64,000 nucleotides of DNA from Candidatus Spyradenecus sp. GTDB lineage: Bacteria > Verrucomicrobiota > Kiritimatiellia > RFP12 > DVOR01. The notes under the pieces are model-generated. The model did no database searches, had not been told where the DNA came from, and worked only from the letters and a program-made list of their open reading frames with translations. The stretch covers positions 64,603 through 128,602 of the forward strand of contig JAZUPT010000019.1 in the NCBI GenBank assembly GCA_045605345.1. The letters run 5' to 3'. Both the position numbers and the translations under genes were made by a program. Below, one piece after another: positions 10,528-54,288 of this stretch (positions are counted from its first letter, which is position 1; each line of letters starts with the position of its first letter).

Positions 10528-11274
10528 TTAGCGATCCTCAAGGTAGTGCAATCGCAATTTACCCATTAGGTCTTCGCCGAAACCTTCAAGGTCAACGCTT
10601 TCCGATTCCAAACGCCCCTGCAACAGGTTATAGCCAATTGTTGAGGGGATTGCTACCACGAGGCCAACCACCGTGGTAAGCAATGCCGAGGAGATGCCAG
10701 GAGCCAATTCTGCGATGTCAGCACTTCCACACGCAGCCATCGCTTGGAAGGCGTACATCACACCCCAAACGGTGCCGAAAAGACCCATGAGTGGCGCAGA
10801 ACTGGTGAAGATGGCAATCCACGTCATGCCAGGTCCGCTCAGATTGACGCATTGCTCTTCCACGGAGTGAGCGCAGACAGACTCCACGAGGTCCATTTGC
10901 TTTCGTGTGAGACTCAGGCGATAGGTGGGGTCAATGCTCATGCGTTGACGTTGTTCAACTGGCACCAACGTGGCGAGGCGTTCGCAACTCTTCACATAGA
11001 CGTTGCCCATCGGTGTTTCGGTGAGCGCATGCGGTGCGTGGGCATACTCCACGAAGATTTCCAAGGGGTCGTTCTTCTTTACGAAGGCGTCTACGAAGCG
11101 TGCCGAACGATTATGAATATCGTCAAGTCTTGCCTTCTTGCTTAACATCATCCCCCAAGAGCAGATGCTCATCACAATTTGGATGATGACAATCATCTGA
11201 CCCATGATGTCCGAGTCCATAAAGGCTCGGAAGGGGCCCGTGGTGCCTACGGCGAGCAGGAGCGAATCAAACAT
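10528..11274 (-). CDS. exbB: MotA/TolQ/ExbB proton channel
   Basis: 248 aa, three-transmembrane MotA/TolQ/ExbB architecture, adjacent to exbD. Confidence 0.8.
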   Translation of the reverse strand: MFDSLLLAVGTTGPFRAFMDSDIMGQMIVIIQIVMSICSWGMMLSKKARLDDIHNRSARFVDAFVKKNDPLEIFVEYAHAPHALTETPMGNVYVKSCERLATLVPVEQRQRMSIDPTYRLSLTRKQMDLVESVCAHSVEEQCVNLSGPGMTWIAIFTSSAPLMGLFGTVWGVMYAFQAMAACGSADIAELAPGISSALLTTVVGLVVAIPSTIGYNLLQGRLESESVDLEGFGEDLMGKLRLHYLEDR

Positions 11275-11281
11275 GGTTCAC

Positions 11282-12991
11282 TTAAATCCTTTCCGGAGTC
11301 GGAATACCGAGCAAGGTCAAACCAGCACGCAAGACCTTAGAGACGGCATCGCACAAGCGGATACGGCAATCACGCACTGCGGGATCCGCCTTCAATACGG
11401 GCGAACACTGGTAGAAGCTGCTATAGAGTTGGCTGAGCTGGTAGAGGTAGTCTGCTAAGACGCTCGGCTTACAGAGGTCACCTGCGCGCTGCACGGCATT
11501 GGGATATTGCAAGAGGTGAAGGGCGAGGGCCTTTTCGGCATCGCCGGTGATTAGGAGCGGATTGTCCTTTGGCTTGCGACCCGTTTCTGCGCGATAACGT
11601 GCGAGCAGGGAGTTCAGGCGGGCGTTAGCATATTGCAAGTAGGGGCCGCTATTGCCTTCAAGCGCAAGGGCACGTTCCCAAGTGAAGACAATCATTGTGG
11701 CAGGGTCGTGGGAGAGGTCGGCATACTTAATGGCGCCGATGCCGATTGCTTCAGCGAGGGTTGCGCGTTCCTCTTCGGTCCAATCGGGGTGACTTTCGTC
11801 CACAATCTTGCGTGCACGGGCAGCTGCTTCATCGAGGAGTGTTTCAAGTTTAATCACGTTGCCTTGGCGTGTGGAGAAGGTGCCTTCAGGCAAGCGCATG
11901 AGACCGAAGGGAACGTGCTGGAGTGCCGCCTTGGCGCAGAAGCCAAGCTTGCCGCAGATGGCGAAGAATTGCTTGAAGTGAAGTTGCTGACGATCATCGG
12001 TGACGTAGATGATACGCGCAGGGTCAAATTCTTCAGTACGCGACTTGACCGTGGCGATGTCGGTGGAGGTGTAGTTGAAGCCGCCGTCACGCTTGCGAAC
12101 AATGGCCACTTCCAAGCCTTCATCCTTCATGTCCACAATCCATGCGCCTTCGCTCAAGGTGGCTAAGCCCTTTTCCTTGAGCGTTTCAACGACGGGCTCC
12201 AACATCGGCTGGTAGTAGCTTTCGCCACGATAGAGGTCGAAGCTTACATCAAGGCGGTTATAGATGCGACCAAATTCACCGAGGGAGATTTCAATAAAGC
12301 GCTTCCATACAGCGAGGTTGGCTTCGTCACCAGCCTGCAACTTCACGAGCTCTTCACGGCAGGCGTCCAACCATGCGGGATCTTCCTTGGTGGCGTTGTA
12401 GCTCTGCACGTAGACCTTTTCGAGGAGTTCTACCGTGAGGTTGGCGCGTTCGTCATCGGTGAGGAAGTGGCGGTAGCCCATGATGAGGATGCCAAATTGC
12501 GTTCCCCAGTCACCAAGGTGGTTGTCGGCAATGACGAGATAACCCAGCGCACGCAGGATGCGGTCAATCGCATTACCAATTACCGTGCTACGAATGTGGC
12601 CGATGTGCATCGGCTTCGCCACGTTAGGGGAGGAGTAGTCAATGACAACCTTTTCGTTCGCACCGCTCTGCGGAACGCCAAGGTGGGGATCATTGCTGAG
12701 CGATTCCACGCCATCAGCGAGGGCGCGGTTCGAGAGGGTTAAGTTGATAAAACCAGGTCCTGCGACTTCTGCCTTTTCCAAAATATCAGGCAAGGGGAGT
12801 GCCTGAATTACGGCATCGGCTAATGCGCGCGGATTTTTGCCTGCACGCTTGGCGATGCCCATGGCATCATTGCACTGCCAGTCGCCAAAACGCGAATCCT
12901 TTGAGGGCACAACTTTGCCACCGCCACATCCAGGCTCTACTGCTTCAAATGCCGCGCTCAACCACTGCTTTACAAGACCTTCGCAATCCAT
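11282..12991 (-). CDS. argS: Arginyl-tRNA synthetase
   Basis: 569 aa; HIGH motif region PMHIGHIRSTVIGNAI and a class-I anticodon-binding C-terminal domain. Confidence 0.9.
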   Translation of the reverse strand: MDCEGLVKQWLSAAFEAVEPGCGGGKVVPSKDSRFGDWQCNDAMGIAKRAGKNPRALADAVIQALPLPDILEKAEVAGPGFINLTLSNRALADGVESLSNDPHLGVPQSGANEKVVIDYSSPNVAKPMHIGHIRSTVIGNAIDRILRALGYLVIADNHLGDWGTQFGILIMGYRHFLTDDERANLTVELLEKVYVQSYNATKEDPAWLDACREELVKLQAGDEANLAVWKRFIEISLGEFGRIYNRLDVSFDLYRGESYYQPMLEPVVETLKEKGLATLSEGAWIVDMKDEGLEVAIVRKRDGGFNYTSTDIATVKSRTEEFDPARIIYVTDDRQQLHFKQFFAICGKLGFCAKAALQHVPFGLMRLPEGTFSTRQGNVIKLETLLDEAAARARKIVDESHPDWTEEERATLAEAIGIGAIKYADLSHDPATMIVFTWERALALEGNSGPYLQYANARLNSLLARYRAETGRKPKDNPLLITGDAEKALALHLLQYPNAVQRAGDLCKPSVLADYLYQLSQLYSSFYQCSPVLKADPAVRDCRIRLCDAVSKVLRAGLTLLGIPTPERI

Positions 12992-39470: not shown

Positions 39471-40547
39471 TTAGAGAATCAACATACAATCGCCGTAAGA
39501 GAAGAAGCGATACCGAGCTTTGACGGCCTCTTCATAGGCGGCCAAAACGCGTTCTCTTCCTGCCAAGGCCGAAATCATCATGATTAAGGTGGACTGCGGC
39601 AGGTGGAAATTGGTCAACATGACATCAATGGCCTTGAAGGTGTACGGCGGGTAAATGAAGGCAGTGCTGCTACCTTGTGTGGCGACAATTTCGCCATTGT
39701 TGAGCGAAGCAACCGTTTCAAGTGTACGCACCGAGGTGGAGCCCACTGCCACAATGCGTCCACCCGCGGCACGAGTTTCACGGATGGCGCGTGCCGTCTC
39801 TTCTGGGATTTCGTAGAATTCAGCATCCATGCGATGCTCTTCCACACGTTCAGCCTTGACGGGTTTAAAGGTGCCCGGCCCCACATGTAGCGTCACGAAG
39901 GCGCGACGCACGCCTGCCGCCTCAAGTTTTTCAAAGAGTTCATCGGTGAAGTGCAACCCTGCAGTAGGGGCAGCCACTGCGCCCACCTCCTTGGCATAAA
40001 CCGTTTGATAACGCTCCTTGTCGAGGCGCGCCATCTCGGGGTCGTTGGCATCGCGTCGAATATAGGGTGGCACGGGGGTGAGACCATACTGGTCCAACAA
40101 TGTCATCAATGGCTTGGCAGAGCGGAAGCAGACGAGGGAGTGTCCCTCTTCGTCCTTGTTGAGCACTTCGGCACGGAGTTGCTGCTCGGCGCAGAGGATG
40201 GTATGACCCGTACGTGACTTGCGTCCACTGCCGCACATGCAGCGCCATTGCGAGGTGAAGAGGCCCTCCACTTCGTGTTCGGTTTCGCAACAATTGAGGA
40301 GCAGTAATTCTGCTGCGCCACCAGTATCTTCCCAAGCACCGAGAATGCGTGCAGGGAAGACGCGCGTGTTGTTCAAAATCATCAAGTCGCCTGGACGTAA
40401 ATAGTCCACAATGTCGCTGATGGATTTGTGCTCAAGCGTGTTGGTCTCGCGGTTCAACACCATCATGCGCGAAGTGCCACGCACCTCTGGAGGGACCTGG
40501 GCGATGAGTTCTTCAGGGAGATTGTAATCAAAGTCTGCGGTGAGCAT
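39471..40547 (-). CDS. queA: S-adenosylmethionine:tRNA ribosyltransferase-isomerase
   Basis: MLTADFDYNLPEELIAQ ... GDLMILNNTRVFPARI ... and a conserved QueA C-terminal region. Confidence 0.85.
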   Translation of the reverse strand: MLTADFDYNLPEELIAQVPPEVRGTSRMMVLNRETNTLEHKSISDIVDYLRPGDLMILNNTRVFPARILGAWEDTGGAAELLLLNCCETEHEVEGLFTSQWRCMCGSGRKSRTGHTILCAEQQLRAEVLNKDEEGHSLVCFRSAKPLMTLLDQYGLTPVPPYIRRDANDPEMARLDKERYQTVYAKEVGAVAAPTAGLHFTDELFEKLEAAGVRRAFVTLHVGPGTFKPVKAERVEEHRMDAEFYEIPEETARAIRETRAAGGRIVAVGSTSVRTLETVASLNNGEIVATQGSSTAFIYPPYTFKAIDVMLTNFHLPQSTLIMMISALAGRERVLAAYEEAVKARYRFFSYGDCMLIL

Positions 40548-43353
40548 GGGTATCCTTTTGGAGGCAGGAGCCTTCTTCGGTGGCTTTTTTCACGGCGTCA
40601 CGATAACGATTCGCGACCTCCACCCCGAGGTCTTTCTCAATGATTTCTGCATAGCGAGCGGTGGCCACTGGGTGTAAGGGATAGTACCGCAGGCAGGTCT
40701 TAATCTCGCTTTCGGGGTCAGAGGAGGGAGGGAGATCCTTGGAGAGGATATAGGTCCAAAGTCGGTACTGACGCGGTTCAGAACGCAACCATCCCTCACA
40801 CACGGTGCGAGCGCGAGTGGGGTTTTCCTTAATTAGGCTTTCTAAGACACGGCAGCTAAGCTCTTGAGCGAGTGCAGGCGTCTTGGCAAGGCGTTCACGA
40901 ACGTTGAAGCTGCCGACGAATTTGACCGCCTCTTCGAGTTTGTTCTCAGCCAAGAGGGCATTGACGTAGTAGAGCGCATAGGCGAAGGTGCCATCGCGCA
41001 GGAAGAAGGACTGCATCTTGTCGGCAATGCGTTCACGTAGACGCGAGTTCTTTTCACGGAAGAGGGTGTAGAGCGCATCGTTGTCACTGAAGAAACGCTT
41101 GTTTTGTTGGTAGAGTTCGTCCGTCTTTGGGTGGTTGGGGTAGAGGCAGAAGAAGAGTTCCCAATCGGTTTCAGAGAGGGTATTTTGGGCCAAGAGTTGT
41201 GCCACTTCGTCTGCGGGAAGGTGGAGAATCGCCACGGCACGTTCAGGACGAGAGAGTTGGCTTGGGTCAGTTCGATAGAGCGCAAGAATCTCGGTCAAGA
41301 CGGCAGGCGCATTGCCTAATTGAAATCTTCTCAGACGGCTTGCCGAACAGAATCCCGGTGCACGCACAGGGCCATAGCGGTGTTCGAAGAGAAGGGCCGT
41401 GTGCTCAGAGGGTTGGCGCAGTTCTGGGCGCGCTTCCAAGACATCGCGGGCGGCATTGCGTTCGGCCTGTGTAATTGCGACGCCTTCGTGTTCCAACGCG
41501 GCGAGAGAGAGTGGAATGCTCGGGTTCTCAGGGTCAAGTGCGTGGGCGAGGCGCAGATGGGTGGCGGCCGCTTCGGGCTCTGCTCCAATGGCACAGGCGG
41601 CATGTTCTCGGGCGGCGAGTTGGTTCAATAAGAGCGTGCAGTGGTTGCCAATCGCCGTCTCTCCAAGCGTGGTTTCCTTCAAGAGCTTTGCCGCTTGGGC
41701 AGCATTGGTGGAGGTCTTGCGCGGGGGGAGTTGCTTTAAGATGCCGAGCTCAGGCGCAGTGGCAAGCAGATATTGGCGCAGGGGTTCCACGCCAACGTGT
41801 GTCAGGTTACGAATTAAAGGATCATGTGCCGCCACGTTTTTGAGGAAGGGGTGGTGATCCAATGATGCCGGCGTGAGCGTAGAGAAGGTTTCTGCTTGAG
41901 GTTGAATCGGTCTTCCGGAGATGTAACGGCGCGCCACGATGCCGAGTGTGTCTGGGTGATGCGTCATCCAGAGTGTAGCGGTTTCGGGGACGAGTTCATC
42001 TAAAAGCGGCGCAATGGCATGCATCGCCGTGCGGGCGGGCAGACCAGAGGCAGCAGGGGCATTTTTAATCGCAGAGTAAATCGCGAGGGTGCCAGAAAAG
42101 GCAAAGGTAAGGAGTAGGGCAATCAATCGAAACTTCGCACGAGACCAATGGACACGTTCGCCAAAACCGGTGTGTAACCACGACCCGAAGAGCACGCCAA
42201 TGCAGAGGGGCAACATAAAGCCTGCCACCAAGGCCATCGCATCGGGTTCGCAGAAGAGTTCCCATGCCGATTCGGGCCACTGCAAGAGCATCGCAATCAA
42301 AAGCCCGACGCAGGCGACTTGCCCAATGATTGGTGAGCCAAATTTGAGATAGGCGTGGGGGAAGCAACCGAAGAAGAGTGCCGCCGCAGAGAGGAAGATG
42401 ATGAGCGGGGCTAATCCTTCAAATGCGGTAAAGCGAGGCACTAACCCAAGGAGCCCCGTCATGAAGTGTTGGCCCCAGAGTGCGACGCCATTGGGGAGGG
42501 GCATCTGAGCCGCGTTCAGGACGCGCGCCCACCCCGCCGTGACCGCGATGGAGAGCAGGATCCCCACCACTAATCCTGCGCCAGCAGAGAGCAAGTAGGC
42601 GCCCCGTCCTTCTGCTTCATTGTGCAAAAAGATCCCACTCGCCAAAATAAAGGCAAAGAGTGAAACGGGCGTAAGTTCGGGTTGCGTAAAGGTGATAAAG
42701 GCAATGAATGCATAGGTGAGCGCAAGCAGGATGCAGTGACGCGCTTCAGGTAGACGGCTTAAAAGGTAACATTGGGTCGCTCGCCAACGAAACTCAAGGG
42801 CAAACGTAATCATGCAGGTCACCGCCAGCGCCGTTAAGGCTTGCGGGTAGGGGCGTGTGGCAATCGCCCAAATCGGAAGCGTGGCCAAAGCAAGCAAAGC
42901 CGTGGCGATGCCCGTCTCAAAGGAGACGTGCGAAATGGCAAAGAGTGCGCGGTCAAGTTCGTTATCGCGAATGCCTGTCAGGTCGACGCACGCATGGCGA
43001 GAGGTGGCAATTGCACAACGGAAAAGGCAGGCCACAATTCCCGCCCCAATCGCGGCATAGATGAGTCCCACAAAGAGCGTGAGATGATCATAGGGTAAAA
43101 GCGTAGCCAACGAACGAAGCACAATGGTATCCAAGGGTGCCGTCAAAATGTCGGGCGCTGAACCTGGATAACAAATCGCAGAAAAATATTCTGCGGAAAG
43201 TCCTGGGTAAGGTGTGAATGCAGACGTGCCGACATAAAAGAGCAATGCAACGACAAAAATGCCGACCGTCCAAAACAGATTCACGCTATGGCGTTTAAGA
43301 ATGTCAATCATAAGGCTATCTGTGTCATCATTAAGAAAACTAAACGCACTCAT
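40528..43353 (-). CDS. Large polytopic membrane protein with a C-terminal TPR-like domain (DUF2723 / O-mannosyltransferase-like)
   Basis: 941 aa with about 11 or more predicted transmembrane helices in the N-terminal 500 aa, then a helical-repeat C-terminal domain. Confidence 0.5.
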   Translation of the reverse strand: MSAFSFLNDDTDSLMIDILKRHSVNLFWTVGIFVVALLFYVGTSAFTPYPGLSAEYFSAICYPGSAPDILTAPLDTIVLRSLATLLPYDHLTLFVGLIYAAIGAGIVACLFRCAIATSRHACVDLTGIRDNELDRALFAISHVSFETGIATALLALATLPIWAIATRPYPQALTALAVTCMITFALEFRWRATQCYLLSRLPEARHCILLALTYAFIAFITFTQPELTPVSLFAFILASGIFLHNEAEGRGAYLLSAGAGLVVGILLSIAVTAGWARVLNAAQMPLPNGVALWGQHFMTGLLGLVPRFTAFEGLAPLIIFLSAAALFFGCFPHAYLKFGSPIIGQVACVGLLIAMLLQWPESAWELFCEPDAMALVAGFMLPLCIGVLFGSWLHTGFGERVHWSRAKFRLIALLLTFAFSGTLAIYSAIKNAPAASGLPARTAMHAIAPLLDELVPETATLWMTHHPDTLGIVARRYISGRPIQPQAETFSTLTPASLDHHPFLKNVAAHDPLIRNLTHVGVEPLRQYLLATAPELGILKQLPPRKTSTNAAQAAKLLKETTLGETAIGNHCTLLLNQLAAREHAACAIGAEPEAAATHLRLAHALDPENPSIPLSLAALEHEGVAITQAERNAARDVLEARPELRQPSEHTALLFEHRYGPVRAPGFCSASRLRRFQLGNAPAVLTEILALYRTDPSQLSRPERAVAILHLPADEVAQLLAQNTLSETDWELFFCLYPNHPKTDELYQQNKRFFSDNDALYTLFREKNSRLRERIADKMQSFFLRDGTFAYALYYVNALLAENKLEEAVKFVGSFNVRERLAKTPALAQELSCRVLESLIKENPTRARTVCEGWLRSEPRQYRLWTYILSKDLPPSSDPESEIKTCLRYYPLHPVATARYAEIIEKDLGVEVANRYRDAVKKATEEGSCLQKDTHAHRRL

Positions 43354-43700: not shown

Positions 43701-44304
43701 TTCCTTTAGCTTTCCCCAAAAAAGCTCCCAATTGTTGATAACTTTTCTACCACTTCTACCCCAAATTTTCGCAAGGAAGCCGCTGTAGCGGAGTTGATTT
43801 CGCCCCATTTTTGCATTATCTCTTTATTTCTCAATGCGTTATGCAGTTTCAACAAGGTTGAGCAAAAGTGCCGAAAATCTGCCAATCCGTAGAAGAATTT
43901 TCCAAAAACTGCGTCAAAAAAACCGCATTGTTGATAACTCGTTGATAACTCAAAAAAGTTTTCAACAAGCGAAAAATCGATGAAATTTTCGAAAAAGTGA
44001 TGGTTTCGCGCACGAGATTTTAAGGGACAAAAGGGATGAAAGGGAGGAGGAAAGAGACAGTTACCGCGAACGCAGTTTTAGAGAAGTGACAATCAGGTCC
44101 ATGAGCCCCCGCTCAAACAAGTTCCTTTTCCTATTTCAAATAGTCTCTTTTAATTGTGATTTTCGCCTTTCAAAGATGCTTCCTCCTTGGCGAGCTGCGG
44201 ATGATCCATTCGCGCTTGGGAAACATTTCTATCAACTTCTCGTATGTATAATTATTGATTTATAAATCATTTTGAGTTATAGTGGTAATAGGATTGAGGT
44301 GAGC

Positions 44305-47300
44305 ATGAACACATTCTTCCTTTTTCGTGCGACTATCACATTGCTCTTCGCAATATTCACATATCACACTCTTTTTGCAGAGGGCGACTTCCTTGGGCCG
44401 CCGCTACCCAATCTATCTCCTGAAGATGAAACAGAATTACCGAATGAGGGAAGTGATGATAATGAAGATGCGCCTGTTGAGGAGAATACACCAACTTCAT
44501 TAGCACTTATTGATTACTCGTCTTTTTTTAATCATTATGATTGGAGCACGTGGGATGAACGCATCGCAACATGGTATTCAAATTGTCATGATGCTGCTTT
44601 AATGACTCCACCGCTTCCATTAGGCACAAGAATGCATCATGCCCTTGGTGTTGAAGAAGTTTTTCCTCCCTTTGATGAGTTTTGCCCAAATTTAGAAGCG
44701 ATTGTCGTAGGAGATATTCAAACGTGGCAAGTTCGTGTAGAGGAGCACATTAATGCAGAAGGAGAACGCTCCTTTTGGACGCTCATTGGGAATGTCATTG
44801 TTCATAAGTTGCCATCACCAATGACATTTAATCCAACGAATTGGATTTGTTCTCTTTATGAAGATAATCTTCCTACGTGGCTTTTTGAAGACGAAGAGCA
44901 AACAACGGAGTGGTTGAGTATACGTGACCGAAGTCGCCTTGCAATTACATTAACAATCTTGCCGACAGGAATGCTCTCGACTTACAATACGGTCATGATT
45001 GAACTTGCAGAAGCCGAGCGTGTCAAGCGCGAGGAAGCGCAACAAGACCCTACCGCCTTTGCTTTTACACGGATTGATGTATCAGATAAAGATGTCTTTT
45101 TTGAATTTTACAACCCACTTAATGTTCGACTAAACCTACTGACAAGGGTGCGCCTTGATGAGCCGTGGGCATTATTTGGGGAGGTAGGTGAAACATCTTC
45201 TTTAGGTTACACATCAATTACATTCCCGCGACAAGAAAAAAATGACCCACCCTTTTTCCGTATCGTTGATGCCGTCACAGATACGGACGGTGATGGTTTG
45301 GCGGACGGTCTTGAACTCAATTATTTTAAGAGTGACCCCACCAAACAAGATTCTTCTGGCTCAGGGATTAGCGATTGGGATAAAGTGTATGTTTATAAGC
45401 TTGATCCAAGCGTACGCGATTCTGATGGTGACGGGTTAATTGATGGCGAAGAGATTCACATTGGGACAAATCCACAAGTTGCTGATAGCGATGGCGATGG
45501 GTTAAATGATGCAGAGGAAGTTAATAGCCTTCAACCCGCAGTAGCGTTTACTTGGATTCCAATAACGGCCTCTATTTTAACAAATCCCACGACGGAGTGC
45601 ATTGAGATTATATTGCCATCTGCGGTCAGTTTCGCCGGACATTTGTATGACAAGGTTATTATTGACACTGTGGGTAAACTAACACTCTCGCATACGTCTA
45701 TAGGAGATTCAGTTGATGAATTGATTATTTCAGGACATAGCAATCATCCCTATCTTTCAATTGATGCAGAATCAGACATTCTGTTTGAAGCGACAACATT
45801 TAATGATGTCCCCTGTTTTGTTTTTTCTTTTGTTAATTTAATTTTTGACGATGAGCGAAAAAGTTCTAATCACATCACATTTCAGATTGTATTGAGTTCA
45901 ATGTTCCCTAATCGTGTTTGGATTAACTATCTCGATATTGGTAAAGATAAATGGAATAATGGTGCAATTGCACAAATTCAAAATAAAACAAAGAAATCTT
46001 CTATCACGTTCCCCTACCTAAATGAAGGCACACTTACCACGCAAATCTCACTTGAGGGACGTTTTGGCTATGGCACCAATCCACATCTACCAGACAGTGA
46101 TGCCGATGGGTTATTGGACGGTGTTGAGATTAAAGAGGCGGGAAGTTCGCCTTTAATTGCCGACACCGACAAGGACTCCTTGTCTGATGGCAAAGAATTC
46201 TGTCACTATCACACCTCGCCAGTGTTGATTGACACCGATGGCGACACATTGCCTGATGCATGGGAAATTCAACATGGATTAGACCCCTGCTCAACAAATG
46301 GCAATCATGGACGTTTAGGAGATCCAGATGGAGACCGGCTGCCGAATGAGCTTGAGATGGAATACCAAACGTCTCCGACCCTTGCCGATTCCGATAGGGA
46401 CGGGCTGTCCGATTCGCACGAGGTTGGTCAAATTACTACTGAGAATGTTAATGAGACGCGTTCTGGGACAGTGCTTCATTCACTAAGCCATAGTTCAAAT
46501 GCAGATTCATTAGTCGCAACATTTTCACTCCCCTCTGCAATTCGCTTTAATACTACGTCTTACTCTAAGATCTTAATTTCATTGGATGGTCACATTCTTT
46601 TATTTAATGATGACGAAAATTTCTCTGAACTGTCTTATTCAAACATAAAATTAACGGGACTGAAGAGTTGCGCAACAGCTCTTATTATTGCAGCCTTCTG
46701 GGATGATTTGTATTATTTCGGCAATGAAACACGCATCACATTGGAAGAAACGGAGGATTCTTATCTTGTTCGCTATCAAGATGTTGGGTTATATGATTTT
46801 AAGTCAAACCAATCGGTTGTAGGTACGTTTGTTATTACGCTTCCTAAAAATGCCAATCCTTCTATTTCAATCACATACTCCAATTTTTCCTCTTCTTTTA
46901 CATGTCAAAGTGCGACCATCGGTGTTCGCACTGCATCTCTAAGTCGTGATATTGGACATAAAGTGTACCAATACACTTTTAACCAGGCAGTAGTACTCAA
47001 TAATACTACGGTGAATTTTTTAATAGGAAGTGGCACAGACCCCAACCTTTCCGACACCGATAATGATGGCATCTTGGATAGTGAGGAACTTGCCATCAAC
47101 ACCTCACCCTTTAGCGCCGACGACGATTTAGATGGACTACCTGATGGTTGGGAAATACAGTATTCGCTTAACCCAAAGTTTGCGAGTGGCAATCATGGCG
47201 CTAATGGAGACCTCGATGGAGATTTTCTGCGAAACTTAGATGAATACCGCGCAGGTTCCTCTCCCTTACACAGTGACACTGATAATGACGGTCTACTGGA

Positions 47301-50300
47301 TATTCAAGAGTTTGGTGGAGTCGCATTACAGTATAACGCGTCATGGATAACTACACCAAGTTCAATGACTAACATTATGTCTCGATTTAAAAGTACTTCC
47401 ACGGGATACGTTACGATTGATTGTAGTGATGCGCCATTTCAGTTTTTGAACACAAATTACACCACGATGTCTATCAATCTTAATGGACGAATTGACTTAT
47501 TTAATGATGATGTGTCGCCATCAGGATTAGCCACGAAAGGTCCAAAAGACTACTACACATGTGAGTCACAACAAAATCATATTTTGTTAGCCCCAGCATC
47601 GGGCGATCTATTTCTTTCATCATCCTCTTCCATTCTTTATGGAGAAACCGTTCTGAATGGGAAGGTATATGTTGTGGTGGAGTATCAACAGATGGGGGAT
47701 TATTGGAATAATGCAGACCTTGCCAATCATCAAATTTCGGCTCAGATTCTAATTCCTCGCGTCATCTCTCCCATTGAGCCGATTATCATCAATTACAAGA
47801 ATGTCGCGGGCAATCTATCACGAGAGCGACTCTCCGTAGGCTTTACAACACCAACACATTCAAAAGGGCGCGGTTTCGTTTTTAGTGAAAACCGACCGCT
47901 ATCCTCACCCGAAAGTGTTGCATTATTCCTTGGGATTGGCACATCGGCCTCAAATACAGATAGCGATTGCGATGGAATTAGTGATGGAGATGAATACAAC
48001 TATGGTACAAATGCTATTCAACCAGACACAGATGGAGATGGATTGTCTGATGGCTGGGAAATGCAACATGCTTATAATCCCCTCGTTCACAATGAAACAG
48101 ACGCGATTGTAGGCAATGAAAGAGATGCTGACCCAGATGAGGATGGCTTAACCAACCAGGAAGAAGAGTGTTTTAAAACGGTTCCAAAACAAACCGATAG
48201 TGATGGTGATGGCGTAAGTGATAAGACGGAAATTGACCAATGCAGTCATCCAATGAATGCTCAGGATGAAGGGATTCCAATGACGTATTATCCGGTCACC
48301 TTCGAATTCGGCGATTGGAGCACAAGTCATTCTGAAAAATATTATTTAACAATTAGGCCATTGGGAGAAGCCGCTTCAAATGAAAGTAAAATTGGGTGGG
48401 TCAACCTTGAATATGGTCAAGTTGAAACAAAGATTGCGCTTCTTAAAAAAGGTACAACATATGAAGTGTCACTCACGCATGCGAGTTCAAACCAAAGCGA
48501 ACCAGACTTAGACTACACCCTCAATATTAAATCTCCCAATGGTAGCGGACTCATCATTACAGACGCTATTACATCCCCCTTGGGAGCGTTTGCTGAATCC
48601 GAATGGGACTCCTCCGATCGTCTGTTTAAATTAACACTTGCAGGAGGCGATATTTACTGTGACATCAATCGAGATGGTCAAATAGAACAAGCAGTTGATG
48701 GCATTGCTACTCGAAGTGGAAAGAAGGTGCTTCATCATTGGTCCAACGACGATTATGACGTAGGGAACTGTAGCGATGACAAGGGTGCAACAGACATCCC
48801 TAAGGGAAACCAAAGCATTTTTAACGGAAATGACTTAAATTATCGTGATGGCACTGTTAATGGACGAGCCGACCTATTAGATTTTGTTCCCCTTTGGTTT
48901 GATATCGCTGATTTAATTAATGCGTGTCCGATGACGCAAGACTACACGTATACATTGTCATCAACGCTTGAAGTCGGCATTGTTTTTACCGAATTAGCCG
49001 CCAATGATGTCTTTAGTTGGCAGACCTCTGATGTGATAACCTACGACAAGCAAGGGGACGAGACACCCTCACATGAAGCCTCCGTCTACCCGATTGATGA
49101 CGCAGGTTTAGAGCTTAACCAAACGCTACTCAACCATTTAACAACTGGCATTGTGATGCTTGAAGGTAACGAACCAGGAGAAGGAGAATTAAAGCTTACG
49201 GTTTTGAAAGATGATATACTTATTTCCGAAATCGCATTTCAATTCAAGATTGTTGAAGTTGAAAACATGTACCGTACCATTGACATCACTTCAATGCCAC
49301 ATACCGTTGCTAAGCCAAGTGCGCCGACAGGATTAGCAGACTCCTATTTTGCGGAAAACACGCCTTACCTTTTCTTCTTGCATGGGTTTAATGTAACACC
49401 TAACACAGCGCGAGGATGGCAAGCAGAAATGTTTAAACGTTTGTGGCAGACTGGGTGTGATATGAAATTCGTTGGCGTAACGTGGTTTGGTGAAGAGGGT
49501 GTATTTGAGGCTTTTCGTTACCAAGAAAATGTCCGCAACGCACTTCTGTCAGGCGAATCATTCGCAGCATTGATGTCGCATTACAGTCAAGATAAAACGG
49601 TCGTAATGGCTCATAGCTTAGGCAATATGGTCGTCTCTTCTGCGTTTCAATTCTATGGCGCGACGTGTGACACCTTTATGATGCTTAATGCTGCAATCCC
49701 AAGCGAAGCTTTTGGGGCAACAGTTTCTAATGCTGACGAATACGTGAACTGTTTCGAAAGCGAGCAGCTCTTTGTTCCCGAGTCGTGGCACTCCTATCCC
49801 TGCAAGTCGTGGAGTGTTAATTGGCATAAACTCTTTTCCGCTGACGAAAAAGAGTCTAAATTAACATGGCGCAACGCATTCAAAGATGTCCCAACGAAAA
49901 CAACGGTCTATAACTTCTATTCCTCTGAAGATGAAGTCTTTGAACTTCACCACACGGTCCCATCAATGTTATCAGGAACAGAATTTGATCTTGCTTGGCC
50001 CTACATTGATTGGACTTTCCCTTATCTCCATCTACTATCGTCAATCCGAGTTGAAGCATCCCGCTATGCTTGGCATAAACAAGAAGTGTTTAAGGGAATG
50101 AATGGCCCCATTGGAACAAAAGGTGGTGGATGGTCATTCCATTGTCGCGAGCGTGGATTTAAGGTTTACCCAACGGGTGACGACGCGAGAAATGCAACAG
50201 ATACGCGATTACGGACGCGCCCCGTCTTTTCTACACGCGAAACCCCCTTCTTACGTAATGTGTCACAATACTCCGATGAAGAGTACTTCACACTCCTCGC

Positions 50301-50532
50301 CCTTCACATACCGGCCCTCACGCCTGCAATGGGAAGACCAGAAAATGCGACATTTTCGGATGTCGCCTCACTCTATCCGATTGACATGATTACAGTCAAA
50401 AACAATGGATGGGGGCGAGAACATTTTGAGTACAAAGGCCGTTGGCTTCATAGTGATGTCAAGAATATGGCATATTTTTATGTACATGAGCTTTTTCAAA
50501 CACTTAATTCTCTTGTGAAAAGGAGCAAATAA
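44305..50532 (+). CDS. Giant secreted multidomain protein: TSP3 calcium-binding repeats, three NIDO-like domains and a C-terminal alpha/beta-hydrolase (lipase/esterase-like) domain
   Basis: Signal peptide MNTFFLFRATITLLFAIFTYHTLFA, with RBS GAGGTGA before ATG 44305. There are at least 15 DxDxDGxxDxxE repeats (for example DTDGDGLADGLE, DSDGDGLIDGEE). Three paralogous domains of about 200 aa carry an FxFPxxxYxKIxIxxDGxIxLFND-type core. The C-terminal region has an LHGF oxyanion motif, an AHSLGN nucleophile elbow, and downstream D/H candidates. GC is much lower than the core genes. Confidence 0.8.
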   Translation: MNTFFLFRATITLLFAIFTYHTLFAEGDFLGPPLPNLSPEDETELPNEGSDDNEDAPVEENTPTSLALIDYSSFFNHYDWSTWDERIATWYSNCHDAALMTPPLPLGTRMHHALGVEEVFPPFDEFCPNLEAIVVGDIQTWQVRVEEHINAEGERSFWTLIGNVIVHKLPSPMTFNPTNWICSLYEDNLPTWLFEDEEQTTEWLSIRDRSRLAITLTILPTGMLSTYNTVMIELAEAERVKREEAQQDPTAFAFTRIDVSDKDVFFEFYNPLNVRLNLLTRVRLDEPWALFGEVGETSSLGYTSITFPRQEKNDPPFFRIVDAVTDTDGDGLADGLELNYFKSDPTKQDSSGSGISDWDKVYVYKLDPSVRDSDGDGLIDGEEIHIGTNPQVADSDGDGLNDAEEVNSLQPAVAFTWIPITASILTNPTTECIEIILPSAVSFAGHLYDKVIIDTVGKLTLSHTSIGDSVDELIISGHSNHPYLSIDAESDILFEATTFNDVPCFVFSFVNLIFDDERKSSNHITFQIVLSSMFPNRVWINYLDIGKDKWNNGAIAQIQNKTKKSSITFPYLNEGTLTTQISLEGRFGYGTNPHLPDSDADGLLDGVEIKEAGSSPLIADTDKDSLSDGKEFCHYHTSPVLIDTDGDTLPDAWEIQHGLDPCSTNGNHGRLGDPDGDRLPNELEMEYQTSPTLADSDRDGLSDSHEVGQITTENVNETRSGTVLHSLSHSSNADSLVATFSLPSAIRFNTTSYSKILISLDGHILLFNDDENFSELSYSNIKLTGLKSCATALIIAAFWDDLYYFGNETRITLEETEDSYLVRYQDVGLYDFKSNQSVVGTFVITLPKNANPSISITYSNFSSSFTCQSATIGVRTASLSRDIGHKVYQYTFNQAVVLNNTTVNFLIGSGTDPNLSDTDNDGILDSEELAINTSPFSADDDLDGLPDGWEIQYSLNPKFASGNHGANGDLDGDFLRNLDEYRAGSSPLHSDTDNDGLLDIQEFGGVALQYNASWITTPSSMTNIMSRFKSTSTGYVTIDCSDAPFQFLNTNYTTMSINLNGRIDLFNDDVSPSGLATKGPKDYYTCESQQNHILLAPASGDLFLSSSSSILYGETVLNGKVYVVVEYQQMGDYWNNADLANHQISAQILIPRVISPIEPIIINYKNVAGNLSRERLSVGFTTPTHSKGRGFVFSENRPLSSPESVALFLGIGTSASNTDSDCDGISDGDEYNYGTNAIQPDTDGDGLSDGWEMQHAYNPLVHNETDAIVGNERDADPDEDGLTNQEEECFKTVPKQTDSDGDGVSDKTEIDQCSHPMNAQDEGIPMTYYPVTFEFGDWSTSHSEKYYLTIRPLGEAASNESKIGWVNLEYGQVETKIALLKKGTTYEVSLTHASSNQSEPDLDYTLNIKSPNGSGLIITDAITSPLGAFAESEWDSSDRLFKLTLAGGDIYCDINRDGQIEQAVDGIATRSGKKVLHHWSNDDYDVGNCSDDKGATDIPKGNQSIFNGNDLNYRDGTVNGRADLLDFVPLWFDIADLINACPMTQDYTYTLSSTLEVGIVFTELAANDVFSWQTSDVITYDKQGDETPSHEASVYPIDDAGLELNQTLLNHLTTGIVMLEGNEPGEGELKLTVLKDDILISEIAFQFKIVEVENMYRTIDITSMPHTVAKPSAPTGLADSYFAENTPYLFFLHGFNVTPNTARGWQAEMFKRLWQTGCDMKFVGVTWFGEEGVFEAFRYQENVRNALLSGESFAALMSHYSQDKTVVMAHSLGNMVVSSAFQFYGATCDTFMMLNAAIPSEAFGATVSNADEYVNCFESEQLFVPESWHSYPCKSWSVNWHKLFSADEKESKLTWRNAFKDVPTKTTVYNFYSSEDEVFELHHTVPSMLSGTEFDLAWPYIDWTFPYLHLLSSIRVEASRYAWHKQEVFKGMNGPIGTKGGGWSFHCRERGFKVYPTGDDARNATDTRLRTRPVFSTRETPFLRNVSQYSDEEYFTLLALHIPALTPAMGRPENATFSDVASLYPIDMITVKNNGWGREHFEYKGRWLHSDVKNMAYFYVHELFQTLNSLVKRSK

Positions 50533-51593
50533 TGAAAATGTTTTATCACATTATGATTTTGTCATTATTACTTATGACAGCATGTGCAAACACATATGTT
50601 CCCAAAGCCAAAGTTACAATTCGTTCGGTGAACCAAGATGGGAAACCAATTGTAAACGAACCTGTGCGAATAGGATTTTCGTCATGGGGAGGAGTCTATG
50701 GAAAAACAGATCAGAATGGTTGCTTTACTGCAGAAGGACGACCGACGAGTGATTATCTTTTTGCAATCGGCCGGATGAAGGTAGATGAGGAATCCCCAAA
50801 GTATTATGCAACCTATTTTAGTAAAGATATCGCCCACTGGAAAGATTATCCCAAAGACGGCAAGTGGAAACCGTGGAATGAAACGATTGAAGTCGTCGTA
50901 AAAGAAAAAATAAATCCTATTCCAATGTATGCAAATGGGATTAAATTTAAAACAAATATCCCAGTCATTGATGAGTGGGTAGGATATGATTTCGAATACA
51001 ATGACTGGGTCGCTCCTCATGGCAAGGGGATTGTCGCAGATATTGAAGTTTCTCTTTCCGAAGAAAAGCCAACCGAAGAGGATGAAATTGAAGCATTGAA
51101 GATTCGTTTTCCGTATCCCCTCGCAGGCGCATACGTTATGAAAAAAGACCTCAATTGTGACTTTAAGTCCGTGTACCACGCAAATCCCAACGCAACGTAT
51201 GAACAAGAGATAACATGGTATAAAGCATATAAAATGATGGATGACATCAACCCTCATGCTTGGACAGAAAAAGAACGTTATTTTAAAGTAAGCAGAATGG
51301 TTAAATACAATCTCCTCTCCAAAGACGATTATCTCATTTTTCGTACACGAACAAAAGTGGACGAAAATGGGAATCTCATTGAAGCCCGTTATGGAAAAAT
51401 TTATGGACCTATTGAGTTTCGGTTAAATCTAACAGATGAAAGGCCGTCCTATCGCAAGCGTGTCACCCTCTGGAACTATTATTTCAATCCTACTGTTAAT
51501 GACACGAATCTTGAATATGATTTAAAACGTAATTTACTCAGTGACAAGGTTAAACCCAGAAAACGTGTAAACAACTCTCGTGTGTGGCCATAA
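50532..51593 (+). CDS. Lipoprotein paralog 1 with an N-terminal CarboxypepD_reg-like beta-sandwich; candidate immunity protein
   Basis: Lipobox LLLMTACAN. Its ATG overlaps the giant gene's stop (TAATG). It is about 90% identical overall to the next gene. Confidence 0.7.
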   Translation: MKMFYHIMILSLLLMTACANTYVPKAKVTIRSVNQDGKPIVNEPVRIGFSSWGGVYGKTDQNGCFTAEGRPTSDYLFAIGRMKVDEESPKYYATYFSKDIAHWKDYPKDGKWKPWNETIEVVVKEKINPIPMYANGIKFKTNIPVIDEWVGYDFEYNDWVAPHGKGIVADIEVSLSEEKPTEEDEIEALKIRFPYPLAGAYVMKKDLNCDFKSVYHANPNATYEQEITWYKAYKMMDDINPHAWTEKERYFKVSRMVKYNLLSKDDYLIFRTRTKVDENGNLIEARYGKIYGPIEFRLNLTDERPSYRKRVTLWNYYFNPTVNDTNLEYDLKRNLLSDKVKPRKRVNNSRVWP

Positions 51594-51649
51594 TCGCATC
51601 AAATCGTAACCATAGAAGATTGTAGAAATGGCTCATTGCCACCTTAACA

Positions 51650-51742
51650 TTGGCTTCATAGTGACGTCAAGAATATGGCTTATTTTTATATCCATCCGCT
51701 CTTTTCTCACATAGTAGAAATTCTTCAGAGAGGCTCCAAATG
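51650..51742 (+). repeat. Orphan copy of the giant gene's 3' end (encodes WLHSDVKNMAYFYIHPLFSHIVEILQRGSK*)
   Basis: TTGGCTTCATAGTGACGTCAAGAATATGGCTTATTTTTAT matches 50442-50482. It is in frame and ends with a TGA that overlaps the ATG of paralog 2. Confidence 0.75.
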
Positions 51743-52786
51743 AAAAAACACGTAACACTTGTTCTGTCTTTTTTATTTCTTTTAACTGCTTGTGCCCACA
51801 ACTACATTCCCGAAGCCAAGGTAACATTTAAGGTTGTTGATATGCATGGAAATCCAATCCCAAACGAAGATGCCACATTAGGTTTTTCACCCACGATTGG
51901 ATTTCATGGGAAAACGGATGAGAATGGTTATTTTACAGGCCGTGGTCGAACAGAAAGTGATTACGTCTTTTCTGTTGCTCGCGAATCAAACAAATACTAT
52001 CGAACCCGTTTTAGTAAAGATATCGCCCACTGGAAAGATTATCCCAAAGACGGCAAGTGGAAACCGTGGAATGAGACCATTAAAATCGTTGTAAAAGAAG
52101 AAATAAATCCTATTCCAATGTATGCAAATGGGATTAATTTTAAAACAAATATCCCTGTCGTTGATGAGTGGGTAGGATATGATTTCGAATACAATGACTG
52201 GGTCGCTCCTCATGGCAAGGGGATTGTTGCAGATATTGAAGTTTCTCTTTCCGAAGAAAAGCCAACCGAAGAGGATGAAATTGAAACGTTGAAGATTCGT
52301 TTCCCGTATCCCCTCGCAGGTGCATACGTTATGAAAAAAGACCTCAATTGTGACCTTAAGTCCGTGTACCACGCAAATCCTAACGCAACGTATGAACAAG
52401 AGATCACATGGTATAAAGCATATAAAATGATGGATGACATCAACCCTCATGCTTGGACAGAAAAAGAACGTTATTTTAAAGTAAGTAGAATGGTTAAATA
52501 CAATCTCCTCTCCAAAGACGATTATCTCATTTTTCGTACACGAACAAAAGTGGACGAAAATGGGAATCTCATTGAAGCCCGTTATGGAAAAATTTATGGA
52601 CCCATTGAGTTTCGGTTAAATCTAACAGATGAAAGACCGTCCTATCGCAAGCGTGTCACCCTCTGGAACTATTATCTCAATCCTACTGTTAATGACACGA
52701 ATCTTGAATATGATTCAAAGCGTAATTTACTCATTGACAAGGTCAAACCCAGAGAACGTGTGAACTACTCTGGTGTGTGGCCATAA
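51740..52786 (+). CDS. Lipoprotein paralog 2
   Basis: Lipobox LLLTACAH. Residues about 100-348 are nearly identical to paralog 1, whereas the N-terminal ~90 residues have diverged to roughly 55% identity. Confidence 0.7.
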   Translation: MKKHVTLVLSFLFLLTACAHNYIPEAKVTFKVVDMHGNPIPNEDATLGFSPTIGFHGKTDENGYFTGRGRTESDYVFSVARESNKYYRTRFSKDIAHWKDYPKDGKWKPWNETIKIVVKEEINPIPMYANGINFKTNIPVVDEWVGYDFEYNDWVAPHGKGIVADIEVSLSEEKPTEEDEIETLKIRFPYPLAGAYVMKKDLNCDLKSVYHANPNATYEQEITWYKAYKMMDDINPHAWTEKERYFKVSRMVKYNLLSKDDYLIFRTRTKVDENGNLIEARYGKIYGPIEFRLNLTDERPSYRKRVTLWNYYLNPTVNDTNLEYDSKRNLLIDKVKPRERVNYSGVWP

Positions 52787-52849
52787 TCGCATCGAATCGT
52801 AACCACAGAAGATTGTAGAAATGGCTCATCAAAACATTGCCCCTTAATA

Positions 52850-52900
52850 TTGGCTTCATAGTGACGTCAAGAATATGGCGTATTTTTATGTTTGTTGATT
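52850..52900 (+). repeat. Second orphan copy of the giant gene's 3' end (WLHSDVKNMAYFYVC*)
   Basis: TTGGCTTCATAGTGACGTCAAGAATATGGCGTATTTTTATG. The preceding 55-bp spacer is also shared with 51594-51649. Confidence 0.75.
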
Positions 52901-52959
52901 GAAAAAGTAAGTGGGCAGGTGGAACGAAATTACCTGTCCACTTACTTTCTTAATCAGCC

Positions 52960-53175: not shown

Positions 53176-54288
53176 ATGAATGACTTTGATGAATATCTTG
53201 TAGCAGGAGAGCCAGATAAGCGTGAGCGCGCATACGGATGGGCTACCGCCATCGGTCTGCAGGATGTTGATGGGCTGAAGGTTTCTGACCTTCTACTCAA
53301 GACTGCGAGGCGCAATATTGAAGGTGAGATAACTCAGGTAGATGCCGGGCAGATTATTGATGCTTACTATGAAACAAAGGAAGGACATGATCAGCCAGAA
53401 GATCAAAAAGAGGCTGATAAGGTGGCGTGTAGAATTAATGAAACGATCAATTCACCAACGTTTCGTTTTTCGCCAGAATACTACATTGGATTGCACGGTA
53501 GACTCTTTAAAGATGTGTTCGCTCACGCCGGAAAGATACGTGAGGTGGAGCTTACGAAGCGTGAATGGGTGTTGAACGGTGACACGGTCAACTATACGCC
53601 GTCGTATTTAGTGAAAGACTCACTTGCGTATGATTTCGCGGAGGAAAAGAAGTTTAGTTACGGTAGACTCTCTGATGAAGCTTTTACGGAACATTTTGCG
53701 TCTTTTATTTCGGGGCTTTGGCAGATTCATCCATTCAGAGAGGGGAATACTCGAACGGTTGCGGTTTTTGCCATTAAGTATCTGCATGCGATGCGTTATG
53801 ATGTGACGAATGCGCTATTCAAGGAAAAGTCGTGGTATTTTAGAAATGCGCTTGTGCGGGCGAATTATGAAAACCGGCAACTGAATGTTGAGAAGACGAT
53901 GCAACCTTTGGAGAACTTCTTCAAAGTCCTTATTTACGGAAGTAATATTGAGTTACGAAATAGATTTTTGCGTATTGGGGGTGAACATGAGATATCAAAG
54001 TCAAATGCTGTAAAGGATTTACATTGGAATGGGGGCGGCATAGATGTCGGTATAAAGAGTGTGGATGTCGGTATAAATGTCGGTATAAAGCAGGGGGAAA
54101 TACTCTCGCATACTGAAGAAAATGCCGTTAAGGCCATCTTGCGAGACAATCGCATAACGGCCAAGGCGTTGTCAGCTGTGTTGGGGGTTACCTCGCGTCA
54201 GGCTGAACGTATAATGGTGTCGCTTAAGAAGAAGACGGGCCTGCGTCGCGAGGGGTCGCGTAAAAATGGTCGTTGGATATTTTGCTAA
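53176..54288 (+). CDS. fic: Fic/DOC-family protein with a C-terminal winged-helix domain and a degenerate Fic motif
   Basis: HPFREGNTRTVAVFA, against the canonical HPFx(D/E)GNGRxxR; C-terminal wHTH-like LSAVLGVTSRQAERIMVSLKKKTGL; low GC. Confidence 0.75.
   Translation: MNDFDEYLVAGEPDKRERAYGWATAIGLQDVDGLKVSDLLLKTARRNIEGEITQVDAGQIIDAYYETKEGHDQPEDQKEADKVACRINETINSPTFRFSPEYYIGLHGRLFKDVFAHAGKIREVELTKREWVLNGDTVNYTPSYLVKDSLAYDFAEEKKFSYGRLSDEAFTEHFASFISGLWQIHPFREGNTRTVAVFAIKYLHAMRYDVTNALFKEKSWYFRNALVRANYENRQLNVEKTMQPLENFFKVLIYGSNIELRNRFLRIGGEHEISKSNAVKDLHWNGGGIDVGIKSVDVGINVGIKQGEILSHTEENAVKAILRDNRITAKALSAVLGVTSRQAERIMVSLKKKTGLRREGSRKNGRWIFC

Follow-up and report, generated by a model that had tools for sequence, protein, structure and literature searches.

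Repeated gene 3' ends and mosaic lipoprotein genes beside a giant gene with a predicted lipase-like domain: a candidate polymorphic effector/inhibitor locus in Kiritimatiellia

Background

Why should the last codons of one gene be found again, in frame, behind each of the genes that follow it? This question is raised by a stretch of 64,000 nucleotides from contig JAZUPT010000019.1 of Candidatus Spyradenecus sp. (hereafter the window), in which a giant gene with a predicted lipase-like hydrolase domain at its C-terminal end is followed by two lipoprotein genes, L1 and L2, and the 3' end of the giant gene reappears after each of them. An initial annotation of the sequence proposed an effector/immunity organisation with orphan modules, analogous to the lipase effectors (Tle) and immunity lipoproteins (Tli) of type VI secretion systems (T6SS) and to the arrays of contact-dependent inhibition (CDI) and Rhs toxins. 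Comparing the locus with its relatives in other genomes, we have moderate confidence that it is a polymorphic effector/inhibitor locus, made of a Sec-exported lipase-like effector, its cognate exported inhibitor or immunity lipoproteins, and orphan cassettes.

The weapons that bacteria use against each other have been well charted in Proteobacteria, Bacteroidota and Firmicutes. Our literature searches gave nothing comparable for the Planctomycetes-Verrucomicrobia-Chlamydiae (PVC) superphylum, although this group is common in gut, soil and water habitats. If the reading is true, it would add two new protein families, an effector domain and an immunity family, each with hundreds of members, and a different route to toxin polymorphism: the rim of the active site alone would be swapped, along with a single domain of the immunity protein, and the homology arm would be provided by catalytic-motif codons. 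Testable pairs are at hand in the resident and the orphan cassette of one 2.5-kb stretch and in matching alleles known from other strains. Even if the effector/immunity reading is wrong, a strictly conserved enzyme/lipoprotein pair still needs explaining.

Results

Three copies of the 3' end of the giant gene

A 29-nt core, TGGCTTCATAGTGAYGTCAAGAATATGGC, occurs with no mismatch at 50443, 51651 and 52851 and gave no match in 100 shuffles. Around it, a repeat finder placed three units of 55 nt at 50442, 51650 and 52850 (100, 87 and 76% identity), spaced by 1208 and 1200 nt. The initial annotation had reported that the 3' end of the giant gene returns in frame at the latter two positions, directly after the lipoprotein genes; three copies are indeed present where none is expected by chance, in the order described, but spacers of 56 and 63 nt separate the copies from the genes before them.

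The copies differ in what follows their conserved part (Table 1). In the first, WLHSDVKNMAYFY is succeeded by a variable C-terminal helix of tail type t1 and by the ribosome-binding site (RBS) of L1, and the TAA overlaps the ATG of L1 (TAATG). The second stays in frame for its 31 codons, a TAA two codons ahead of the W closes the frame, no start codon stands before this W, and the TGA overlaps the ATG of L2 (ATGA); both overlaps of start and stop codons had been described at the outset. Behind the third copy there is a long hairpin, missed by a simple terminator scan and revealed by folding, which is the probable transcription terminator of the giant-L1-L2 operon.

The repeat starts exactly at the codons of the invariant WLHSD, the probable catalytic-His motif of the hydrolase. 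Because these codons encode an invariant motif, the stretch would stay similar enough for recombination, and the earlier proposal of recombination at a conserved toxin 3' end is supported to this extent.

An in-frame ATG (the M of KNMAYFY) is kept in every tail copy, and that of the second copy would give a 22-codon mini-open reading frame (51675-51743) with its stop overlapping the L2 start. Retention of the tail copies for translational coupling was considered and set aside, since L2 has its own GAGAGG RBS and coupling is not required.

Table 1. Features of the locus and their positions in the window (last row: positions in related loci)
Feature	Position	Strand	Description
Giant gene	44305..50532	+	about 2075 aa from ATG 44305; signal peptide, bacterial TSP3 repeats, C-terminal 586-aa conserved module
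Beta-sandwich domain	48772..49344	+	first part of the conserved C-terminal module, preceding the hydrolase; AlphaFold2 model, pLDDT 81
Alpha/beta-hydrolase (lipase-like) domain	49345..50532	+	predicted Ser-Asp-His hydrolase
Oxyanion HG, FLHGFNV	49375-49395	+	hydrolase domain
Nucleophile Ser in AHSLGN	49606-49626	+	hydrolase domain
Probable catalytic Asp in SSEDEVF	49921-49941	+	hydrolase domain
Hypervariable His-loop GRPENATFSDVASLYPIDMITVKNNGWGREHFEYKGR	50332..50442	+	between the conserved PALTPAMG and WLHSD motifs
Probable catalytic His in RWLHSD	50440-50457	+	hydrolase domain
Tail copy 1	50442..50532	+	functional 3' end of the giant gene; its conserved 55 nt encode WLHSDVKNMAYFY
Lipoprotein gene L1	50532..51593	+	353 aa; lipobox LMTAC; N-domain type N1 (about 50586-50825), C-domain type C1
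Tail copy 2	51648..51743	+	orphan 31-codon remnant of the hydrolase 3' end, HWLHSDVKNMAYFYIHPLFSHIVEILQRGSK and stop; tail type t2
Lipoprotein gene L2	51740..52786	+	348 aa; lipobox LLTAC; N-domain type N2, C-domain type C1; mosaic
Tail copy 3	52848..52898	+	trailing 16-codon remnant, YWLHSDVKNMAYFYVC and stop; same remnant present in locus L001
Long perfect hairpin	52894..52958	+	folding dG -37.8 kcal/mol, z = -9.1; 11-nt loop
467-aa gene and exosortase EpsH/EpsI gene	L002:17903-20940; L003:11500-14537; L083:10549-13586; L088:4779-7816		sister lineage

A predicted Ser-Asp-His hydrolase ends the giant protein

The giant open reading frame (ORF) is open from 44272 to 50532 (2086 aa); ATG 44305 is the likely start, and the Sec-type signal peptide MNTFFLFRATITLLFAIFTYHTLFAEG stands right after it. 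Pfam and NCBIfam recognise TSP3_bac and a sub-threshold match to DUF900 (PF05990; 19.9 bits against a cut-off of 20.5) and nothing else in the protein, and two relatives, P0147 (23.9) and P0159 (26.1), exceed the DUF900 threshold. Of the Sec-secreted TSP3/NIDO giant described initially, the signal peptide and the TSP3 repeats remain, and the NIDO domain drops out for want of any Pfam match at E <= 0.1.

In the AlphaFold2 model of the 586-residue module, with a predicted local distance difference test score (pLDDT) of 81, a beta-sandwich is followed by an alpha/beta-hydrolase. The beta-sandwich, positions 1-191 of our hidden Markov model (HMM), is covered only in long proteins and is missing from the stand-alone relatives of 391 aa. 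When 32 diverse homologues are aligned, the oxyanion HG, the Ser of AHSLGN and the W558, H560 and D562 of RWLHSD are invariant and D387 is nearly so; sequence conservation and fold model together give the hydrolase a GxSxG-type nucleophile elbow and a Ser-Asp-His triad. A profile search of PDB sequences returned weak pancreatic-lipase matches only and no Tle structures. Foldseek against the PDB likewise returned generic alpha/beta-hydrolases only, the complex LipA:LipB (9g8u) among them, with TM-scores that are low because the query has two domains. Judged by sequence and model, the domain is lipase-like, without placement in any described family.

Just ahead of the WLHSD motif lies a hypervariable segment, here called the His-loop (Table 1). 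In the canonical alpha/beta-hydrolase topology the His is on the loop following the last core strand, from which it follows that the variable loop would lie at the active-site rim.

The hydrolase and the lipoprotein are paired across genomes

The lipoprotein is all-beta in its predicted model (pLDDT 85.9), with a transthyretin-like N-terminal domain. Neither L1 nor L2 has anything above threshold in Pfam and NCBIfam, a profile search of PDB sequences gave weak matches to Ig/transthyretin-like domains only, and these searches together with the structure search detected no relation to any described family; an exact sequence look-up of L1 found no record.

A profile of the lipoprotein family, searched against contigs of one genome per species, yielded 189 relatives, and 79 loci were kept for HMM scans, nearly all from Verrucomicrobiota, Kiritimatiellia and Lentisphaerae and a few from Proteobacteria. 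Hydrolase sequence stands directly upstream of the lipoprotein gene in 62 of the 75 evaluable loci: in 57 a module that is complete, or truncated where the contig stops, reaches or overlaps the lipoprotein start, and in 5 only 3' fragments are present. The remaining 13 show no hydrolase although at least 2 kb upstream is visible, and 4 further loci are not evaluable for an upstream hydrolase. The initial annotation had reasoned that homologous lipoproteins occurring widely without adjacent effector-like genes would indicate an unrelated function; because the pair is conserved in so many evaluable loci, this is not the pattern found.

Ten of the 13 hydrolase-less loci were inspected and have unrelated upstream genes. 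In two of them IS200-type (Y1) transposase genes stand directly upstream of the lipoprotein gene (L005:8840-9676 and L067:8766-9707). In another hydrolase-less locus (L064:6508-9879) the lipoprotein gene is preceded by that of a 1123-aa BlaR1-type M56 peptidase fused to three CarboxypepD_reg domains, possibly a different partner or a sensor context.

Proteins bearing the module are between about 530 and more than 2800 aa long, and at their N-termini they carry extracellular modules that are interchangeable (TSP3, Laminin_G_3, Glucodextran_B, RCC1 and Ig-like Big domains). What is more, there are stand-alone versions, 391-395 aa long, made up of a signal peptide and the hydrolase; these end in RWLHSD..YFY and are followed by the same partner family, which suggests that the functional unit is an exported hydrolase with an exported partner and that the giant stalk is optional. 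Two such stand-alone pairs, each a 391-395-aa hydrolase with a 310-327-aa partner, lie in contigs from the Hadza human gut (L091:336-7105, also L092 and L093) among genes for an N6_N4 DNA methyltransferase, PDDEXK_3 and ResIII/DEAD helicases, a context that looks like a mobile or defence island.

So strict a pairing, translationally coupled and with both products exported, also brings to mind a dedicated helper: a steric chaperone or foldase of the kind that Lif is to family I lipases, a partner in secretion, or an anchor in the outer membrane on which the C-terminal domain of the giant docks, the arrays being by-products of recombination. Lipase/foldase operons are a known precedent in which, as here, the gene of a lipase-like alpha/beta-hydrolase is followed by that of a membrane-tethered periplasmic partner, and the LipA:LipB complex is among the Foldseek matches of the hydrolase. 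The C-domain of the lipoprotein is strongly conserved with invariant motifs, as if it recognised the conserved enzyme core, and the giant proteins resemble surface adhesins. However, Lif is helical and single-copy, whereas the partner found here is all-beta, multi-copy in 28 of 79 loci, polymorphic and also present without a hydrolase. A helper would leave unexplained why a locus holds several divergent paralogs, why 13 loci have orphan lipoproteins, why resident and orphan cassettes are exchanged, and why allele classes are confined to the His-loop and the N-domain. We consider the helper unlikely, though it is the rival that we take most seriously.

Arrays and orphan fragments recur in many lineages

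Two to four lipoprotein genes are present in the multi-copy loci, and in these loci 19 copies are preceded by a start-less hydrolase 3' fragment, not by a full gene. Fragment starts cluster at model positions of about 450-465 and about 510-524, the second cluster being the WLHSD motif, and a trailing hydrolase fragment follows the last lipoprotein gene in 5 loci. The effector/immunity-type organisation with orphan modules that had been proposed for the window is matched there and, with the pairing described above and start-less fragments in many lineages, recurs well beyond it.

Two loci depart from this order. One has a lipoprotein gene upstream of the giant gene (L086:2639-3646 and 11034-12024), and its copies downstream of the first one are split into three fragments and are pseudogenes. 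In the other (L094:6001-10250) a hydrolase protein of 715 aa stops just before WLHSD (it ends in NGWGRDDAVYKEAT), without the catalytic His, and two complete lipoprotein genes follow; this may be an inactivated effector with retained immunity genes.

The window alone could be explained by ordinary tandem duplication and gene conversion of a 1.2-kb unit that includes the last 90 nt of the upstream gene, with no special function and with a role of the lipoprotein unrelated to the hydrolase. The layout X-Y-X-Y-X' and the 1208/1200-nt spacing fit unequal crossing-over, and the C-domains of L1 and L2 differ at just 28 of 258 codons (15 synonymous and 13 non-synonymous changes), consistent with recent conversion. 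Nevertheless, the layout recurs independently in distant lineages with differing fragment lengths, the paralogs bear deeply divergent allele types common to other strains, and the hydrolase pairing is kept across phyla, which is unexpected for an unrelated neighbour. On these grounds mere duplication appears very unlikely.

Cassettes are shuffled among close relatives

Eleven loci of the same clade were compared and typed for the His-loop (the roughly 36 residues before WLHSD), for the tail after YFY, and for the N- and C-domains of the lipoproteins (Table 2). One of the lipoprotein clusters has a member annotated as Kiritimatiellae. The copy number of the lipoprotein gene varies from 1 to 4 or more among these close relatives, a kind of variation that the initial annotation had proposed to look for.

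Table 2. Typed arrays among the compared loci (H stands for the full gene, frag for a longer 3' fragment, followed by its size in aa, tail for a short remnant and L for a lipoprotein)
Locus	Array
Window, L087	H(loop1/t1) L(N1-C1) tail(t2) L(N2-C1)
L001	H(loop2/t1) L(N3-C2) tail(t1) L(N3-C1)
L002	H(loop1/t1) L(N1-C1) frag108(loop3/t3) L(N2-C3) frag96(loop4/t4) L(N4-C4) tail(t5) L(N5-C1)
L003	H(loop5/t1) L(N3-C1)
L083	H(loop4/t4) L(N4-C4) tail(t1) L(N3-C5) untyped 23-codon remnant L(N2-C3) frag99(loop5/t6) L(N5-C1)
L084	H(loop6/t3) L(N2-C6) frag88(loop7/t2) L(N2-C7) frag172(loop6/t7) L(N6-C8)

Resident and orphan cassettes are interchangeable between strains. The cassette loop4/t4 with N4-C4 is fused to the full gene in L083, and L002, L088 and L089 have it as a start-less orphan; for loop5, the resident form is that of L003 and the orphan form that of L083; and in L084 the full gene, of loop6 type, bears a tail and an N2 lipoprotein that resemble the orphan cassette of the window. 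The nearest relative of that orphan is the loop7/t2 cassette, for which a metagenome scan found no resident version, that is, no full-length gene carrying it; the scan returned a single 2.4-kb contig, which has the loop7/t2 fragment.

The two lipoproteins of the window reflect the same shuffling. L1 and L2 are 82% identical overall, 51% in the N-terminal domain and 95% thereafter, so the near-identity claimed initially for the remainder holds and the N-domain figure comes down from about 55%. The pairwise alignment that had been suggested for locating the divergence boundary gives a sharp step in the DNA, from 43-70% to 90-100% identity, at 50799 in L1 and 51992 in L2. The N2 domain of L2 is 84% identical to that of orphan cassette b of L002 and is joined at about 51992 to C1, and among the loci it is found joined to C1, C2, C3, C6 and C7. 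In L001 the pattern is reversed, with N-domains 100% and C-domains 54% identical. Because of this reciprocal pattern and of the reshuffling of N- and C-domains among loci, we interpret the paralogs of the window as recombination mosaics: L2 is, judging by its sequence, the product of recombination at the conserved linker KDIAHWKDYPKDGKWKPWNET and not a drifted copy. The N-domains, which the initial annotation described as diverged, did not diverge in place, as the pattern in L001 indicates; what looked like divergence is a combination of different allele types.

The polymorphism is localised, and its allele classes are common to both lineages. The window and L001, and likewise L002 and L003, share 97-100% nucleotide identity over most of the hydrolase module; both pairs fall to 46-73% in the stretches that correspond to window positions 50302-50481 (His-loop) and 50572-50796 (lipoprotein N-domain). 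In both variable segments the closer pairs are the window with L002 (77-83%) and L001 with L003 (63-78%). The tail and signal-peptide stretch between the two segments shows a milder dip, to 84-91%.

Such short variable segments, bounded by conserved recombination sites and borne by cassettes that are expressed in one strain and lie downstream in another, would also suit cassette-based variation of a surface protein, in which silent cassettes of 3' end and lipoprotein act as gene-conversion donors that alter exposed epitopes, both at the end of the giant protein and on a surface lipoprotein, as an escape from phages, predators or host antibodies, and no toxicity is involved. The annotation of the source clade as Kiritimatiellae, the related pairs in human-gut contigs and the adhesin-like N-terminal parts go with it. 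However, the downstream lipoprotein genes, L1 and L2 among them, are complete, each with its own RBS, start codon and lipobox, and are probably co-expressed rather than silent. Moreover, the variable loop flanks the catalytic His of a conserved enzyme and is not obviously an exposed non-functional region, and the 391-aa stand-alone pairs are organised in the same way and have no surface stalk. We therefore give surface variation little credence.

Discussion

The arrangement would be accounted for by an effector/inhibitor locus of the following kind. The giant protein would leave the cytoplasm by the Sec route with its C-terminal Ser-Asp-His lipase-like hydrolase attached, and the translationally coupled, exported lipoprotein encoded downstream would be the cognate inhibitor, an immunity protein that binds the enzyme and shields the producer's own envelope. 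On the enzyme side, specificity may reside in the hypervariable loop and the C-terminal helix that flank the catalytic His; on the lipoprotein side, it may reside above all in the N-terminal transthyretin-like domain, possibly with the C-domain. The DNA for the invariant WLHSDVKNMAYFY motif, kept near-identical through selection on the enzyme, would act as a portable homology arm, and recombination at this motif, at PALTPAMG, at the lipobox region and at the inter-domain linker would insert, displace and re-assort cassettes of hydrolase 3' end and lipoprotein. The window would then hold one resident cassette (loop1/t1 with L1), one displaced cassette (31 codons with L2) and a trailing remnant before the terminator. 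If the enzyme is toxic and by some route reaches other cells, extra lipoprotein genes such as L2 might protect against the hydrolase variants of other strains.

Several points weigh against this interpretation. The giant bears a Sec signal and adhesin-like repeats and is not linked to known delivery machinery, and Pfam found no delivery domains of type V (T5SS), VI or VII (T7SS) secretion systems in it or in 34 N-terminal regions of its relatives. The hydrolase core is conserved, not polymorphic, and the variable part comes to only about 35 + 17 residues. The orphan tails of the window, which the initial annotation had called toxin tails, are remnants of 16-31 codons that keep no variable loop and contain no toxin. 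Co-variation of the His-loop and the N-domain could be physical linkage within one recombination tract of about 500 nt, and the two sets of types are not strictly one-to-one, loop5 being followed by N3 in L003 and by N5 in L083. Finally, lipoproteins this large (about 330-350 aa), with a strongly conserved C-domain carrying invariant motifs, would also suit a non-inhibitory partner.

Regarding known systems, the likeness to Tle/Tli and CDI/Rhs loci that was noted initially holds for the architecture and not for family membership. The genes of two outer-membrane lipoproteins, Tli1 and Tli3, lie downstream of those for lipases that act in the periplasm, and the all-beta Tli3 plugs the catalytic crevice (PMC9860674; Tle3/Tli3 of adherent-invasive Escherichia coli (AIEC), PDB 8boz). 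The window resembles these pairs in its lipase-like effector candidate, the directly downstream lipoprotein genes with lipoboxes LMTAC and LLTAC, and the predicted all-beta partner. However, Pfam, NCBIfam and the PDB profile search assign the giant to none of the families Tle1-5, and no T6SS families (vgrG/hcp/PAAR linkage) are found among the flanking genes of the window and the close loci. The giant and its stand-alone relatives have a Sec signal, which T6SS effectors do not; the hosts are PVC bacteria; and the polymorphism is confined to the loop and the tail around the catalytic His.

Orphan modules of CDI loci lack start codons, begin at a conserved motif, are each accompanied by an immunity gene that is expressed, and are regarded as displaced or horizontally acquired (Poole et al. 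2011, reviewed in PMC9086364). Shared with CDI/Rhs systems are a large exported protein with a C-terminal active domain, start-less 3' fragments that begin at a conserved motif and each precede a complete partner gene, modules that one strain has as residents and another as orphans, and evidence of exchange between lineages. Pfam detected no TPS domain, no CdiB and no Rhs/YD shell with PAAR/VgrG in the giant or the 34 N-terminal regions, except for a few YD/RHS repeats directly before the hydrolase module of one relative (P0152, 788 aa), which has no recognisable Rhs shell or cleavage motif; as these are just a few repeats on a short protein, we attach little weight to them. In contrast to CDI/Rhs, WLHSD does not mark a pre-toxin boundary but is a catalytic-His motif within the enzyme; what is swapped is a 35-aa loop and a 17-aa helix, bounded by PALTPAMG/WLHSD, and not a whole toxin domain; and the partner is an exported two-domain lipoprotein of 330-350 aa shuffled by domain, where CDI/Rhs immunity proteins are small and cytoplasmic.

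Operons that encode both a hydrolase and its inhibitor, each of them exported, and so give self-protection during export are familiar from the alkaline protease AprA with AprI and from the Inh inhibitors of Serratia and Erwinia. To our knowledge these pairs are neither polymorphic nor found in orphan arrays, and their enzyme class and folds differ from those of the pair described here. Nothing on this hydrolase-lipoprotein family, or on systems of this kind in Kiritimatiellota, came up in literature searches that covered DUF900 effectors, Tli arrays and toxins of Kiritimatiellota.

A wider proposal, which we put forward tentatively and regard as possible rather than probable, is that the PVC group (Kiritimatiellia, Verrucomicrobiota, Lentisphaerae) has an interbacterial toxin system that is widespread and independent of T6SS. 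Its lipase, exported by Sec and either free or on giant adhesin-like stalks, would be neutralised by a two-domain lipoprotein; specificity would come from the short hypervariable loop and the helix that surround the catalytic His, and the catalytic-His codons would be the recombination site for swapping and hoarding cassettes of effector tip and immunity gene.

Genes beside the locus

Directly after the array terminator of the window there is a Fic/DOC-family gene of 370 aa (53176-54288, + strand), with a homologue at the corresponding position in L087 and L090. The gene is missing in the otherwise near-identical L001, where an MgsA-type AAA+ gene directly follows the array, and therefore marks an insertion or deletion between close relatives beside the variable locus. 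Downstream of the array, the sister lineage has an unannotated 467-aa gene and then an exosortase EpsH/EpsI gene, directly after the array in L003, L083 and L088 and after a leucine-rich repeat (LRR) gene in L002; in the window lineage this position is taken by Fic, MgsA and a VIT/DUF2135 gene. On the other side, divergent from the giant gene and about 900 nt upstream of it, lies a 941-aa ORF (40528-43353, - strand) that has no Pfam match at E <= 0.001, and a homologue of similar size is found near the locus in L084.

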